DNA of 64,000 nucleotides from a virus: the IMG/VR virus record IMGVR_UViG_3300023179_000072, positions 17,338 to 81,337 of that record. One strand, 5' to 3'. The notes beneath the pieces were generated by a model that saw only the letters and a list, made by a program, of their open reading frames with translations, was not told where the DNA came from and did not search any database. A program made the position numbers and the translations under genes. This document shows, piece after piece, positions 11,706-32,687 of this stretch; positions within the stretch are counted from its first letter, which is position 1, and the number at the start of each line of letters is the position of its first letter.

Positions 11706-12469
11706 ACTAATTAACCCTCTCTTTATACTTATACTTGAATATTTTCTTTAGAACTTTTTATACTATCAATTTCCCAACTTTCCATATAAATAGTATTCTC
11801 ATCAGGATACTGGATCATTAATTCGGTCAGTTTTATATAGCGTCCATTTTAGATTTACAATTTCTCATAACAATATTTACATTAACATAATAATAAGTTT
11901 TATCAGTTTCTTCCTGCATAATCAATGGACTCCCATTTGTTGCTGACTATCACCACGACCGCCAAATCCGAAGGATAAGGTGCGACAGTAAAGGGTTCCA
12001 ATATAAGCCAGACTACTAACAATAGTCTTATAAAGTTGGTGTTCATAATACTGAGATTTTGTCTCAAATATTTTCTACCACTTTTACTATCACTATCCCA
12101 CACACCAGTATACCATACTTTGCTACTGGTGGCAAGTCTTTTAGTTTCAAGGGTTTATGTTGAATCATCTCTTTTACTATTTGATCATATTCTGGCTGAC
12201 TATCGGCATGTGGGGCAAACCGGCTAGATAAGGTGGTACAGTTTAGGTATTCTCTTTTTTTACAAAACCTATTATAATTTTTATCTAAACCCTTTATTTC
12301 CATATACTTACAACCCCACCCCCCTATCCATTATATCGGCAGTCTGGCCTTTGTAAATTAGAAAACTTTCGTAACCCCTTATGGATATTAAACTTACGAC
12401 AAATTTTACGGGCCCCGGTCGTCACAAGTCCTTTGCTAGCAAGCACTTACGCACTTACCCACAATCTAC

Positions 12470-12512
12470 AAAAAAAAGGAAGCCGCCCCCCATTTCTGAG
12501 GGACGGCCTCCC
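12470..12512 (-). terminator. Intrinsic terminator after the DUF932 gene
   Basis: GGAGGCCGTCCC...GGGGCGGCTTCC hairpin followed by a T-run on the minus strand. Confidence 0.7.
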
Positions 12513-12540
12513 CGAGCCACGCACCACGAAAGGAGAGCGA

Positions 12541-13488
12541 TTAGATAGCGCTCGCAAACTCGACGGCTGTATTTAGAGCCTTGAGATTGTCCACGCCATT
12601 CTGGCCGAACCAGAGAGAGTCGAGGCGGTTGCTTACCGTGCGACCCTTAGTGTAGTTCAGGTATTCGTTGAAACCGTTGTATGCAGCCCACCACGTTCCG
12701 CGAACCCCAACCGCACTCTGCTTCGGTCCTTCGACGAGCGTAAGAATCTCGTCCATGATGTTGCGAGTACGAGTTTTGATATCCTCGTCCGGGGTCTTAT
12801 CAATCCCGAGCAGCACCTTGACGTACTTACGAACGTCGTTTTGGTTGAAGTCTTTCGACGCGAGGAACCGATACTGTTCCGCAGTCGCCTCAAACTGTGC
12901 ATTGATATTGTCCATGATATCTCGCACATTTTCCAAATTCGTCTTGCTGGAACGGGTATGACGAATCCTAATAAGTGAACTCTCTTTGCTGCTATGAGCA
13001 GCGGCGAGGGTGTTCACACACACAACCCGAATCGGCGTATAGCCGACGCGAATCGACGTTGTGCCGTCGTGACTGTTAGATAGCAGGATGAACTTGCTCA
13101 CCTCGTCACCCTTGACAATCTCGCAATTGTCGCGGTTGAGTTGAGCCAGTACCCAAACCTTCTCGCCTTCACTGAGCGAACCGGCAGTGTGCAGTTGGCA
13201 CTCGCCAGCATCGAGGAACGGCTGGAACCAGTCGAACGCATCCTGATTTTGCAGGGGCGTATAACGGGGGCCAACCACTCCCAGAACACGGTTGTCGGTC
13301 TTGCGGAAAGTCGCCTTGGCATTGACCTCCGTACCTTCAGCCGTAAAGAGCGGCTTGGTTCCGACCTCCCAATCCAGACCAGCAGCGGTAATCGCCTCGC
13401 TGATCGACGGATTCTCATCCAATTGCGTACCCTCACCGTGCCAAGGGGTGGCACCGACGAACATCATCTTTTCAACCATAGCGGGCAT
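12541..13488 (-). CDS. DUF932/DUF945 (TIGR03299-like) phage/plasmid protein
   Basis: PWHGEG..., LLSNSHDGT, TPIRVVCVNTL, GTWWAAYNG motifs; AAGGAG RBS before ATG 13488. Confidence 0.88.
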   Translation of the reverse strand: MPAMVEKMMFVGATPWHGEGTQLDENPSISEAITAAGLDWEVGTKPLFTAEGTEVNAKATFRKTDNRVLGVVGPRYTPLQNQDAFDWFQPFLDAGECQLHTAGSLSEGEKVWVLAQLNRDNCEIVKGDEVSKFILLSNSHDGTTSIRVGYTPIRVVCVNTLAAAHSSKESSLIRIRHTRSSKTNLENVRDIMDNINAQFEATAEQYRFLASKDFNQNDVRKYVKVLLGIDKTPDEDIKTRTRNIMDEILTLVEGPKQSAVGVRGTWWAAYNGFNEYLNYTKGRTVSNRLDSLWFGQNGVDNLKALNTAVEFASAI

Positions 13489-13650
13489 AACTAACTCCTT
13501 CGTGTCTAAGAACTTTTGCTTTGATAGTCTAAGTATACTACTATTATCGGCTCTGTCAAGGGGCAAACTTGCGAAAAAATTTCGTGACGCAAGTCGTTGG
13601 TATACAAGCACTTACGTCGGGCGGGGCCGCCCCGGTTTGCTCTAAGTCTT

Positions 13651-14148
13651 TTATGGTGAAGGATTTAGGAGAGGCATACCATATTTCTTTTCAAAAAGTT
13701 TTGATGTTTCTGAGGTATACGCACACTCTTCTGGAATATAACAATACAATCCAACACATCTGGCCTTCGGATTATCCTCATGAATTGCTTGCTTAATCCA
13801 TTTAAGAGTATCGCCAGAACAAATTAGATCATCCACTACAATATAACGAAAAGGAGAAACTCCCTCGATATGGAAATTACTATATCTTTTTTCATCAGGC
13901 TTACGAACAATCACAATGTTCTTATTCAGAATTTCACAAACTTGAGGGGTAACAACTAACCCGCTTACGCCACAACACGCAATACTATCAAAAGTATTAA
14001 TTATCTTTCGTAGATTACATACTGCCTTAATGATTATTTTATTTCTATTCTTGTGATTTAGCACCTGACAAGTATGAGAGGCTCCTTGGATAATTTGTCC
14101 ATCTGCTGTGCGACGAACATCTTCAATACTTTGATTCATTATATTCAT
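13651..14148 (-). CDS. Type I phosphoribosyltransferase-fold protein
   Basis: PRPP-binding motif IVVDDLICSGDT. Confidence 0.8.
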   Translation of the reverse strand: MNIMNQSIEDVRRTADGQIIQGASHTCQVLNHKNRNKIIIKAVCNLRKIINTFDSIACCGVSGLVVTPQVCEILNKNIVIVRKPDEKRYSNFHIEGVSPFRYIVVDDLICSGDTLKWIKQAIHEDNPKARCVGLYCYIPEECAYTSETSKLFEKKYGMPLLNPSP

Positions 14149-14151
14149 AAA

Positions 14152-14229
14152 AACGGATGGTACGATTCGAACGTACTATAAGATAAGAAATAAAGAGAGA
14201 TAATACTTGTCCCACCAAGTCGCATCCGT
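14152..14229 (-). ncRNA. tRNA-like element without a paired anticodon arm
   Basis: Acceptor ACGGATG/CATCCGT; T arm GTACG-TTCGAAT-CGTAC; D-like stem ACTTG/CAAGT; unpaired pyrimidine tract in the middle. Confidence 0.55.
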
Positions 14230-14244
14230 TAGAGAGAAGATCAA

Positions 14245-30381: not shown

Positions 30382-30397
30382 AGCAAAAAGCGTGCCA
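30382..30397 (-). promoter_or_regulatory. sigma54 -24/-12 promoter
   Basis: TGGCACGCTTTTTGCT. Confidence 0.75.
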
Positions 30398-30948
30398 AAA
30401 TAGTTGGTGTCATAAGTTGTTGTGTGGCAAGTACTTACGTCAAATCCGGCCCGCCATATTTGCTGTAAGTGCTTATACAGCAAGGGCTTATGCATTATGC
30501 TGAAACTTTGTTAAGCATGATCATCAACCTTCCCAATGGAAAGGTGAAACTTCAGCATTATTTGCCATAATAGCCTGATACTGATCCTTCAAGGCTTCAA
30601 CCCTTTCACGAGAACCGGGCTTTCCAACCTTGAGAATCATGGTATCCTCACCACCAATCAGACGAGGATCAGCCTTTTCATCCCTAACCTTGCCAATACG
30701 ACGTAAAGCCTTGCGATTGAATTTCAGCACCTTTTCACTGCTGATCGGACCATACACATGGTTTGCCAAAGACGGCTGATGACGAATAGCAATTCCAACA
30801 AACGTCATACGAGCCTGAATCTTAGCCTTTTCGATGATAGGGAACTTGGTTTTCATTTTTCTTTCTCTCTTTCTTGTATTTGGATTATAGCAGGATTTTT
30901 TTGGATTGCAAGACAAAAGTTTCCTTGCAATGTCGTAAGATTCAGCAG

Positions 30949-30964
30949 AGCAAATGCTGTGCCA
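30949..30964 (-). promoter_or_regulatory. sigma54 -24/-12 promoter
   Basis: TGGCACAGCATTTGCT. Confidence 0.75.
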
Positions 30965-31785
30965 AATATTGAGCAAATCATGTTGAACATAAAGTGTTGC
31001 GGCATAAAGACTTACATCAAATCCGGCCCGCCCGCTTTGCCGCAAGTCTTTTAGCGACAAGGGGTTACGTTCAATCCCCACTCAGGAAGGGGTATCGCTC
31101 TTGAAGCACCCTATCCGTCTCATCCCACACAGCGTCCTGCTCGACACGGACGCAGTAGTCGTTCAGCTTCTGGTAGAACGTAGCCGCATCCCGAAGCAAA
31201 ACATTTTCGGGAAAATTGTTGATTCGTACGAAAAATCCACCACCCCCCGTTGAGGTGATATCAAAACGCACGTCATCATGCATCATATCATAGATAGCGT
31301 CGATGATTTCCTGAGCCGTAACGATTCGACCAAGCATTTCTTTTTCCTTTTCTCTCTTTCTCTTTCCAGAATTGTATGCAATTTTTCCGCCGCGTCAATC
31401 CCTCAAACGAGGGATCGGTTTTCGCTAGCGATTTTCGCATAGAGAGAATCGTACACAGTACGATGAACACAGTCCAAATCAACACTCTTCAAGGTATAGT
31501 AGCCGACAATATTGTCAAAAATATGGTACTTGTCACCTTCCTTGACAATCGTAAAACCCACCCGATAGGCGTAATAGTTGATCTTTGCACGAATAGTGCT
31601 ATACTTCGGCATCTTGCGAATCTTTCTCATGTTCTTCTCTCTCTTTCTCTTTCTTCTCTACTTCTTATATCGACATTATACAGGGTCTATCTTGAGTTTT
31701 CAAGAGAAATCCTGAAATTTTTCTGTCAAGAAATTTTGACAAAACTTTTTGGATTTTTCATATGCTTTGGCATACCATATGCTAG

Positions 31786-31801
31786 AGCAAAAAGTGTGCC
31801 A
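31786..31801 (-). promoter_or_regulatory. sigma54 -24/-12 promoter
   Basis: TGGCACACTTTTTGCT; a facing plus-strand near-match TGGCATACCATATGCT lies at 31768-31783. Confidence 0.75.
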
Positions 31802-32470
31802 TACTAGCAATTCGCCCTAAGTCTTTACGCTGTAAGTACTTACATCAAATCCGGCCCGCCATATTTGCTGTAAGTGCTTATACGACAACGGTTTATGGCT
31901 TCACAAAATTTCGTATAAGATTTCTGTTAAGCATTGAGCACCTGTACAGTAGTGTATGTTACAAAAACGCTAAACACTAACAACCCTATAATTTCAGGCA
32001 TTCCTACCTTCTTTCCAACCAGCAAACACCAAAGTAAACTCCTTACCGGGATATTTGGCAGCAATATAAGCACGAGCAGTCTCTTCACGATTGTCGGAAG
32101 CAGACACACCCTGAACACCAACACCATCAATCATAACATTCCAAATCCTACGCTTAGGAAACTTCACCCTAGGCAGGCTTCGGATAAACTGATTCACACT
32201 AGTAACCTTTTGCATTTTCTCTCTCTCTCTCTCTTTCTCTACAAACCAATCTACCAAACTTTTTCCGCCGCGTCAATCCCCCTAATGAGGGATAAATTTT
32301 CATCACGGCATTGTTACGCCAACAATCAAACCGAAAATAGCCACAACGCAAAAAATGCAAACCATAAACGAAACCCTTTCTTTCTTCTCTATCTCTTATA
32401 TCGACATTATACCACGGTATTCTTTAGTTGCAAGAAAAAAATTTCCTTGCAATGCTGTAAGGTTTAGCTC

Positions 32471-32486
32471 AGCAAATATTGTGCCA
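32471..32486 (-). promoter_or_regulatory. sigma54 -24/-12 promoter
   Basis: TGGCACAATATTTGCT. Confidence 0.75.
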
Positions 32487-32687
32487 AATATTTAATTCAA
32501 TAGACTCGCCATAAATCCTTTACCAGATTAGACTTACATCAAATGTGGGCGTCCATATTGATCATAAGTCTTTATACCTCAATAACATAGGGGTGGTTTT
32601 TCTGTTTTTTTTACCCTTTTCCCAACCCAGACTAAAAGCGGAGGGTGGTTGATACGCAATCGAAACCAATAAAATATAATGTATTAC

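Follow-up and report, generated by a model that had tools for sequence, protein, structure and literature searches.

A 21-copy array in the early-gene region

The window analysed here (64,000 nucleotides, positions 17,338 to 81,337 of the IMG/VR record IMGVR_UViG_3300023179_000072) belongs to an uncultured freshwater giant (jumbo) phage, apparently lytic. At 12372–32589 it contains an array of 21 repeated elements heading early-gene modules on the minus strand. All genes and tRNAs of the region are on this strand, which is therefore the biologically relevant orientation and the strand to which the coordinates of the copies given below refer. The array is co-extensive with a GC-rich island (G+C of about 0.44 versus about 0.30 outside). 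A search with the single-dyad pattern TAAGTNNTT-N7-AANNACTTA, allowing up to 2 mismatches, gave 34 matches against 1.30 expected (4 in the largest shuffle), all of them within 12425–32589, and pairing the dyad matches produced exactly 21 elements, identically oriented in 21 of 21 cases. Dyad starts were separated by 53 bp in 20 of the 21 copies and by 54 bp only in the copy at 27037, so that both the number and the spacing of the double dyads proposed in the initial annotation were recovered. Its observation that no copy lies beyond 12.3–32.6 kb also held when the complete 81,337-bp contig was scanned, since none was detected elsewhere in it.

Every copy (21/21) is located between the end of a gene or tRNA and a promoter on the coding strand, in the order gene end, element, A/T tract and sigma70-type promoter, and each module has a promoter of its own. 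Following transcription, the first is copy 21 (32512–32589), with a sigma54-like motif at 32486–32472. Similar motifs, followed by promoters, are found after copy 20 (31818–31895; motif 31801–31787, promoter 31703–31675), copy 19 (30990–31067; 30964–30950 and 30911–30884), copy 18 (30413–30490; 30397–30383 and 30344–30317) and copy 17 (29648–29725; 29641–29627 and 29578–29550), the last one only 3 nt away from the stop of the upstream gene and preceding a gene of the HU/IHF family. Five copies in all precede exact TGGCAC-N5-TTGC (sigma54-like) motifs. Then come copy 16 (29148–29225), copy 15 (28269–28346, promoter 28238–28210), copy 14 (27881–27958, promoter 27852–27825), copy 13 (27037–27115, the one with 54-bp dyad spacing), copy 12 (26117–26194, promoter 26088–26061), copy 11 (24311–24388, promoter 24279–24252), copy 10 (23466–23543, promoter 23434–23406) and copy 9 (22858–22935), whose promoter at 22826–22798 reads TTGACA-N17-TAGAAT. 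Copy 8 (21272–21349, promoter 21250–21222), copy 7 (20189–20266, promoter 20160–20132) and copy 6 (18849–18926, promoter 18807–18779) are followed by copy 5 (17922–17999), with a promoter at 17891–17863 and a GP88-like gene, and by copy 4 (16626–16703). The end of a tRNA-Tyr abuts the edge of copy 3 (14836–14913, promoter 14815–14787), copy 2 (13590–13667) precedes a promoter at 13559–13532 and a DUF932 gene, and copy 1 (12372–12449), the last in the direction of transcription, is followed by a promoter-like site at 12357–12330. The array shows no excess of intrinsic terminators (19 versus 13.9 ± 4.0 expected). The only strong terminator-like hairpin on its coding strand (12476–12513, minus strand, 17 pairs plus a T run) is located after the DUF932 gene, at the array end.

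Architecture of the element and its promoters

The conserved span is about 87 bp, somewhat longer than the 78 bp described initially, and consists of two 33-bp units around a GC-rich centre, each of them with the structure GNCG-TAAGTCCTT-N7-AAGGACTTA-CGNC. The centres of the two palindromic units are 53 bp apart, equivalent to five helical turns. Comparison across relatives confirmed the 28-bp linker between the inner arms (269 of 279 copies, 96%; 73% G+C) and also the free variation of the 7-bp spacers, which show no conservation. Both inner arms are much more conserved than the outer ones, the NN positions within the arms do not pair, and the core bases are invariant over approximately 470 copies, though the genomes that carry them are only 70–80% identical. 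With arms conserved as sequence and no pairing covariation, the element reads as a putative double-stranded protein site.

Of 415 copies in the relatives, 294 are accompanied within 110 nt by a TTGACA-N16/17-TANNNT promoter. The spacing between element and -35 box peaks at about 20, 30–31, 41–42, 52–53 and 64 bp, varying thus in steps of ~10.5 bp, and outside the main peak the Rayleigh R was 0.43 at period 11, a value that in 2000 random sets never exceeded 0.315. This clustering is helical phasing; shared descent of whole cassettes, instead of selection, could account for part of it. Distances to the sigma54-like motifs are stepped as well (5–7, 13–16, 25–26 and 35–37 bp). Relative to the promoter the element occupies about -66 to -150, upstream of an A/T-rich UP-like tract that lies between it and the -35 box. 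The promoters linked to elements form a distinct class, in which 53% have a TAGAAT -10 box. When promoter-like sites and copy positions in the window are compared, an element stands directly upstream of only about half of the strongest sites on the array coding strand (those matching 11 or 12 of 12 hexamer positions); of 740 promoter-like sites counted in the relatives, 496 are without an element within 75 nt, and many of these 496 may be chance matches. On the other side of the element, upstream ORFs often stop 3–4 nt before it (82/378).

Distribution, gene order and candidate proteins

The element is real and conserved: the scan of related phages suggested in the initial annotation yielded ~470 copies, spread over no fewer than 90 further viral contigs. 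One array of 16–25 copies is present in each of five complete relatives (229–238 kb), again co-extensive with a GC-rich island in every one of them. The order of genes is largely collinear and ~20 core genes of the array are kept in order across genomes. Conserved genes retain their adjacency in 29% of the cases at element junctions and in 42% otherwise, of 439 indel events 84 are free of any element and only ~38 resemble one module plus one element, gene gain and loss being only moderately enriched at the elements. In this comparison of relatives, as had been proposed, element junctions were somewhat less stable, the core order was preserved and many indels were unrelated to any copy. Contigs from lake metagenomes contain two in-register element-to-element joints, between copies 14 and 15 (the intervening module is missing in those contigs) and between copies 11 and 2, and a further joint at the edge of copy 19. 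These joints look like homologous exchange between repeats, similar to that of the PeSLs (promoter-early stem-loop cassettes) of T4-type phages (PMC2839356, PMC4122927), and not like site-specific recombination. Neither Phage_integrase (tyrosine) nor Resolvase (serine) genes were found in the five complete relatives, in a search that detected the tyrosine family in 14 of 14 control genomes and the serine family in 12 of 14.

The HU/IHF-family gene (29228–29524, minus strand) constitutes its own module inside the array, but it is sporadic rather than a conserved partner of the element. It is missing from the five complete relatives, and the phage HU was rejected as conserved binder. A conserved small basic protein (47405–47650, minus strand) with a GcrA-like or HTH-like look (features 0.85, TM 0.68) is encoded divergently from a phage sigma70-family factor with a weak match to region 2 (47849–48523, plus strand). 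In four complete relatives the gene of the small protein is found ahead of the array and pointing into it, and the sigma gene adjoins the array head in four of the five. The small protein is a candidate regulator, as a lead only. Pfam and PHROGs revealed no DNA-binding family in the set of core early proteins, and the one good structural model had no match in PDB.

Nature of the element

We found no paper describing this element, and several readings have to be weighed. Palindromes able to fold, a start right after stop codons and some G-T oppositions in the arms would fit structured RNA or single-stranded DNA, with two or three hairpins at the 3' ends of modules working as terminator, processing site or mRNA stabiliser. 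This is disfavoured and we consider it very improbable, since over 128 copies the 33 proposed pairs show no covariation (score of 0.139 versus 0.136 in shuffles), paired cells amount to 68.2% versus 68.3 ± 0.4 after shuffling, and pairing at the variable positions of the arms does not exceed expectation. Besides, a mutual-information scan gave neighbour effects only, mismatches compatible with wobble pairing favour one strand in one dyad and the other strand in the second, there is no T run after the hairpins, a terminator-like site overlaps only 2 of the 21 copies and Rfam gave no match to the element even at E up to 1. Inverted arms flanking a 7-bp spacer, in pairs, together with a few module-sized differences bounded by elements, would fit the idea, raised in the initial annotation, of a site-specific cassette system, with either integron attC-like or tyrosine-recombinase core sites. 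Like attC, the element has imperfect inverted repeats that come in pairs and border gene modules. However, attC sites conserve structure rather than sequence, work with the integrase as folded single strands and flank promoterless cassettes, and none of this holds here. The lack of recombinases in the relatives, the promoter of each module and its phasing to the element, the kept core order and the scarcity of cassette-shaped indels leave the integron-like reading largely refuted, and recombination sites of any of these kinds scarcely credible; moreover, as the 7-bp spacers differ between copies, strand exchange between them would be blocked.

A more evolutionary explanation is that the repeats carry promoters, spread with genes and mediate homologous recombination with no dedicated binder. 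The lower adjacency at element junctions, the joints in the lake contigs and the fact that element, UP-like tract and promoter make one distinct class would agree with it, and there is the precedent of the PeSLs, also short repeated intergenic units with a strong sigma70-like early promoter (PMC2839356, PMC4122927), situated between small early genes mostly of unknown function and associated with module exchange through recombination between copies. But a PeSL has as its second half an RNA stem-loop by which transcription is terminated (PMC2839356, PMC4122927), whereas here we find a rigid pair of 33-bp palindromes without covariation or T run, phased to the promoter, in an array that holds ~20 conserved core genes in largely fixed order. 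Recombination by homology would have no need of palindromic arms that never vary, a linker held at 28 bp, 7-bp spacers free to change or phasing to the -35 box, copies within one genome are only ~60–70% identical to each other, and many indels occur without an element, all of which makes this explanation unlikely as the main one. Somewhat better, although still doubtful, is an operator or roadblock array in which the small HTH-like protein, or one of the ~20 conserved early proteins, would bind each copy and shut off early transcription or, stoperator-like, halt polymerases coming from the upstream module. In its favour, each module has one oriented, intergenic site beginning immediately behind a gene end, intrinsic terminators are nearly absent over 20 kb, and in four complete relatives the gene of the basic protein (a lead only) is directed towards the array. 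Against it, repressors usually act over the -35/-10 boxes and these sites are upstream of the UP-like tract, a roadblock does not require the site to be helically phased to the promoter, the site is invariant across diverged phages while the repressors of phages usually come to differ in specificity, and the core early proteins gave neither a recognised DNA-binding family nor, for the good model, a PDB match. Stoperator arrays of Cluster A mycobacteriophages (PMC9283540) are an established precedent, and they too are made of many sites for the same protein, oriented with transcription in short intergenic gaps across a block of phage genes. Yet stoperators are single asymmetric sites of 13–14 bp bound by the monomeric immunity repressor of temperate phages, compared with paired palindromes that span 87 bp ahead of the promoters of an apparently lytic jumbo phage.

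Judging from the sequence, we would give roughly even chances to the element being a double-stranded cis-regulatory module of the early promoters in this freshwater jumbo phage family, where most likely a protein that binds or bends DNA docks and, as predicted, sets up or insulates each promoter. The protein-bound array suggested by the initial annotation gains support from the conservation of sequence without covariation, the promoter phasing and the ~470 copies, while its alternative of a recombination system is not supported. As in IHF-assisted promoters, of which lambda PL and Mu Pe are examples, the site is upstream of both sigma70- and sigma54-type promoters. Both halves of each dyad carry YAA-N4-TTA, and TT and AA steps are spaced by 9 bp, an IHF/HU-type geometry matching three of the four IHF consensus elements given in PMC1874591 (TTR lying four bp 3' of (C)AA, AA steps separated by nine bp, and an extent of ~34 bp, the units here extending over 33). 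Unlike an IHF site, the dyad is symmetrical, its WATC part is not conserved and the N4 positions (GTCC/GGAC) and CG flanks are, which is untypical of E. coli IHF sites; in addition, two sites with predicted binding are locked 53 bp apart in a module repeated 16–25 times per genome. As the core promoters already come close to consensus and possess UP-like tracts, activation may be unneeded. The strong promoter-like sites that lack an element, and the share that cassette descent may have in the phasing, also count against this reading. SPO1 with TF1 and phi29 with p4 also control a phage early region via DNA-bending proteins near early promoters, and in the inverted repeats of p4 sites ~15 bp separate the short outer arms, resembling the TAAGT-N15-ACTTA found here. 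Those binders are phage-encoded and their sites few and irregular, in contrast to the highly regular sites of this array, for which no conserved phage binder was found.

Under the cis-regulatory reading, each palindrome would bind one dimer of a sequence-specific, probably DNA-bending protein. Since the phage HU gene is not conserved, and no HU/IHF gene was found in the five complete relatives, a host factor must be assumed and would be the likeliest binder. The two dimers would sit on the same face of the helix as the RNA polymerase and shape ~90 bp of upstream DNA, so that the downstream promoter would be boosted, shielded from read-through out of the preceding module, or both. A side effect may be that the repeats of element plus promoter serve as patches of homology for the occasional exchange of modules.

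The double-dyad array and its relatives

Scanning the window with the dyad pattern at no more than two mismatches gave 34 matches against 1.3 expected, all of them at 12.4-32.6 kb, and pairing of the dyads yielded the 21 elements that the initial annotation had counted at 12372-32589; the two starts are separated by 53 bp in 20 of them and by 54 bp in the other. A repeat finder recovered the same family in the window. The claim that there is no copy elsewhere also holds for the remaining 17 kb of the 81,337-bp virus record, where none was found. The original observation of the array is confirmed, and the element is genuine, conserved and far from random. 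Among the matches listed (~470 copies) its consensus is formed by two units GNCG-TAAGTCCTT-N7-AAGGACTTA-CGNC, between which there are 20 bp with ~73% G+C. The linker from inner arm to inner arm is 28 bp in 96% of copies, the length first described, and the 7-bp spacers are free across the ~470 copies listed, just as they had been said to be in the window. The near-invariant positions of this listed set are TAA and TTA, and its inner two arms are conserved far more strongly than the outer two.

An exact-pattern scan of IMG/VR found the element in at least 117 loci, and a profile built from the 21 copies retrieved at least 471 full-length copies in the 1.0 Mb of loci listed; orientation agrees within loci for 414 of these 471 listed copies. 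Five related genomes are complete by CheckV (229-238 kb, with terminal repeats in three), and each of them carries one array of 16-25 copies that is co-extensive with a G+C island of 0.40-0.47. About 20 gene families are common to all six arrays, in largely collinear order, and the shared array genes have protein identities of 65-97%; the DNA of the relatives examined is only 70-82% identical to that of the phage. The contig comes from a tailed phage: it encodes a large terminase, has a weak match to a head protein and carries tail-fibre-like genes at 50-63 kb. The closest cultured matches to its terminase are Bacillus phages at 23-25% identity. The phage DNA was found in lake-water and freshwater metagenomes from two studies, with no RNA data set among those listed. 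The search for host copies of the element in 185,579 species genomes returned 25 stretches, mostly on short contigs of freshwater MAGs belonging to unrelated phyla, so that most of them are probably mis-binned phage. Cultured isolates gave three single matches, approximately the chance level by a rough estimate, and the scan yielded no host and no host regulon.

Every credible ORF of the array and its ten tRNA genes are on the minus strand, where the end of a gene or tRNA is followed by the element, an A/T-rich tract, a -35/-10 pair (typically TTGACA, 16-17 nt, TAGAAT), a ribosome-binding site and a start codon. The coding strand has a single strong intrinsic-terminator-like hairpin, at the array end (12513-12476), and terminator-like sites are not enriched in the array (19 vs 13.9 +/- 4.0). 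The array is also a compositional island, with a G+C of ~0.44 vs ~0.30 outside and a codon third-position G+C of 0.41 in its genes vs 0.16-0.19 in structural and other genes. The anticodons of the array tRNAs read A/U-ending codons. The third-position contrast, the conservation of the island and these anticodons suggest that the early genes are matched to a higher-GC host and that the phage tRNAs serve the AT-rich late genes.

A Pistol ribozyme match (18328-18390, minus strand; 53.9 bits, gathering score 34.5) lies in an early module adjoining a tRNA-Arg gene. An HNH-type endonuclease gene, a weak match, is found within the tRNA cluster (15258-15779, minus strand) and a GIY-YIG and HNH endonuclease gene just upstream of the array (32688-33848, minus strand); both are likely homing endonucleases. 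Between the head of the array and the sigma-factor gene there are three very large minus-strand genes of 911-1413 aa (36500-47367), which contain internally repeated DNA segments and linker repeats of the Thr/Pro type; in the complete relatives the sigma gene is ~0.5-6 kb from the array. An ERCC4-type nuclease is encoded at 49668-50147. The last ~830 bp of the contig (63172-64000) have ~65-69% G+C and ORFs unlike the rest of this ~30% G+C phage; either a chimeric end of the assembly or the acquisition of high-GC DNA might account for them.

Promoters linked to the element

Promoter-like sequences follow all 21 copies of the window, and a sigma70-type promoter (at least five of six matches to TTGACA, 16-18 nt and a TANNNT -10 box) was found within 110 nt of 294 of 415 copies among the matches listed. 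The gap from the last base of the proximal dyad to the -35 hexamer is stepped, with peaks at 20, 30-31, 41-42, 52-53 and 64 bp. When the main peak is removed the remaining 143 distances keep a period of 10.5-11 with R of 0.40-0.43, a value reached by none of 2000 random sets. This phasing implies that whatever occupies the element must face RNA polymerase, an arrangement expected more of an architectural or activating factor than of a simple roadblock or a site for recombination. By simple arithmetic, a gap of 30 bp places the dyad centres at about -78 and -131, positions immediately ahead of the UP-like tract. The element-linked promoters are a distinct class, with a -10 box that is TAGAAT in 53% vs 24% and with a richer A/T tract. 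A conserved CGATAAT is present in the promoter spacer of many copies, a few bases past the -35 (for example at 22798-22826, minus strand).

The last five copies by window coordinate are followed by an exact TGGCAC-N5-TTGC, a sigma54-type -24/-12 sequence, and only then by the sigma70-type promoter. Five such sequences occur vs 0.09 expected, all on the minus strand at 29627-32486, and they follow the element in five of the 21 window copies and in 21 of 415 copies in relatives among the matches listed. The sigma54-like motifs are likewise at stepped distances from the element.

A second dispersed motif, GTCTCTCC-TAATCC-TTC-GGATTTGG...ATAGTCAGC, has 45-nt copies at 7772, 8715, 9457, 11942, 12195, 20003, 25860 and 27603, read on the minus strand. 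Three of them stand 12-20 nt ahead of a TTGACA promoter, replacing the double-dyad element. The small hairpin of this motif shows a compensatory change (AATCC/GGATT vs AATCT/AGATT), and the motif has no Rfam match.

Recombination, folding and candidate binding proteins

The initial annotation had offered two readings of a protein-bound site array, a phage cassette-shuffling system or a nucleoprotein scaffold of the early region. For the first, tyrosine (PF00589) and serine (PF00239) recombinases were each found in none of the five complete relatives, with the controls for PF00589 positive in 14 of 14, and the statement that the window lacks a recombinase held for the window ORFs scanned; site-specific recombination was rejected on these grounds. 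Integron attC sites require a cognate IntI-like tyrosine recombinase, conserve a folded structure and separate promoterless cassettes that are gained or lost as one ORF with one site. Here, in contrast, each module has its own promoter and only ~38 of 439 distinct indel events have the shape of a module plus one element, which does not fit such cassettes. On the question whether gene order in relatives breaks at the elements, over 72 loci conserved gene pairs are adjacent in 29% of genomes with an element between them vs 42% without, and 84 of the indels involve no element at all. In lake contigs of related phages copy 14 is joined in register to copy 15, the module between them being absent and seven letters shared, and copy 11 is likewise joined in register to copy 2. 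A further joint is at the promoter-side edge of copy 19, and others are at plain gene borders, such as 22518 to 26968. These joints were read from assembled DNA contigs, which cannot show rare events, and many breakpoints are elsewhere. Joints and indels together would fit occasional homologous exchange between repeated units, as has been shown for the promoter-early stem-loop cassettes (PeSLs) of T4-type phages (PMC2839356, PMC4122927), rather than an integron-like process. PeSLs resemble the array in having a strong sigma70-like early promoter inside each repeat unit, and recombination between their copies gives indels and shuffling, to which the lower adjacency and the two in-register joints may correspond here. 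In PeSLs exchange between neighbouring copies also yields mini-circles; their stem-loop is an intrinsic terminator, whereas the element has neither a T run nor covariation.

A folded RNA or single strand was rejected as well. Mutual information is high between neighbouring columns only, and the Watson-Crick fraction of each variable candidate pair is just what multiplying the two column frequencies predicts. Over 128 copies, a cloverleaf of 33 pairs has 68.2% of its cells paired vs 68.3 +/- 0.4 in shuffled alignments and a covariation score of 0.139 vs 0.136. Wobble-type mismatches favour opposite strands in the two dyads, and Rfam gave no match over any element, with the gathering score as threshold or with E values of up to 1. 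With pairing equal to that of the shuffles and no Rfam match, the element is conserved as sequence and so bears the signature of a duplex site read by a protein.

As to the protein, the IHF consensus comprises WATCAA, TTR four bp 3' of CAA and AA steps nine bp apart in a site of ~34 bp (PMC1874591), and each dyad matches three of these four elements. TTA is present in both right arms at 91-100%, with its complement in both left arms, equivalent to TTR four bp 3' of (C)AA; in the 25-bp dyad the TT step occupies arm positions 8-9 and the AA step 17-18, nine bp apart, and the conserved unit is 33 bp. The IHF-like motif is symmetrical in the dyad, as expected for a homodimer. However, conservation of WATCAA is limited to its YAA part and does not reach the three positions on the 5' side of that part, while it does extend to the N4 positions and the CG flanks, a pattern untypical of E. 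coli IHF sites; these points would weaken a simple IHF reading of the dyad. An HU/IHF-family protein is encoded in the window, in a module of its own (29228-29524, minus strand; Pfam E = 2e-27). None of the five complete relatives has this gene, which is also rare elsewhere (one further close relative in IMG/VR, plus locus L042), so that the phage HU was rejected as the conserved binder; such a binder should rather come from the host or be a phage protein that has escaped recognition. Among the core early proteins no DNA-binding family and no known repressor family were found. One of 137 aa (19315-19728, minus strand), with up to 96% identity among relatives, has a beta-rich modelled fold (pLDDT 87, pTM 0.80) with no Foldseek match in PDB, and the family 1 protein (30524-30859) gave a low-confidence model (pLDDT 69). 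Stoperator or operator arrays have a phage-encoded repressor; here there is one small lead, a basic protein of 70-80 aa with a GcrA/HTH-like look that four complete relatives encode ahead of the array, pointing into it and divergent from the phage sigma-factor gene. We consider it a candidate regulator or repressor as a lead only. A sigma54 enhancer, for its part, needs a -24/-12 promoter and an AAA+ activator, and the element does not qualify as one. A phage enhancer-binding protein was rejected, as the sole PF00158-like phage gene is RuvB and the phage relatives encode no enhancer-binding protein. In the complete relative G003 the RuvB-like AAA+ protein of these jumbo phages is encoded at L154:1508-2413.

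A probable docking module upstream of early promoters

The element is best read as a promoter-upstream module for protein docking, probably DNA-bending, that probably also insulates tandem early transcription units from one another and on the side serves recombination as a patch; its effect may be activation, insulation or shut-off. The idea of a protein-bound site array survives to this extent, favoured by conservation of sequence without pairing and by the promoter phasing, and an integron-like cassette system is not supported. The element belongs with known kinds, namely PeSL-type cassettes, IHF-assisted promoters and operator arrays, and not in a separate category. A full-text search of the literature found no description of a palindrome array at jumbo-phage early promoters. 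A more specific proposal, which we regard as rather improbable, is a promoter-insulating wrap: a host IHF/HU-type dimer or a new phage protein would occupy two U-turn sites that are in phase, and ~90 bp immediately ahead of the UP-like tract would thereby be coiled into a single loop. Such a loop would stimulate the early promoter and would stop, or isolate it from, transcription and supercoiling coming from the preceding module. If true, wraps would replace intrinsic terminators across a 20-kb early region with 20 promoters, and in the whole freshwater jumbo-phage family.

With its 87 bp, fixed spacing and promoter phasing, the element is among the most regular cis-regulatory architectures known to us in phages, and its conservation spans hundreds of copies in a group of freshwater jumbo phages that is abundant but uncultured. 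The protein that controls early transcription could be captured with the element as bait, early regions in metagenomic contigs can be recognised by it, and it allows testing whether protein-DNA wraps can substitute for terminators in insulating tandem promoters. Beyond the T4-like phages, it also adds a case of repeated promoter modules as probable points of early-gene exchange.
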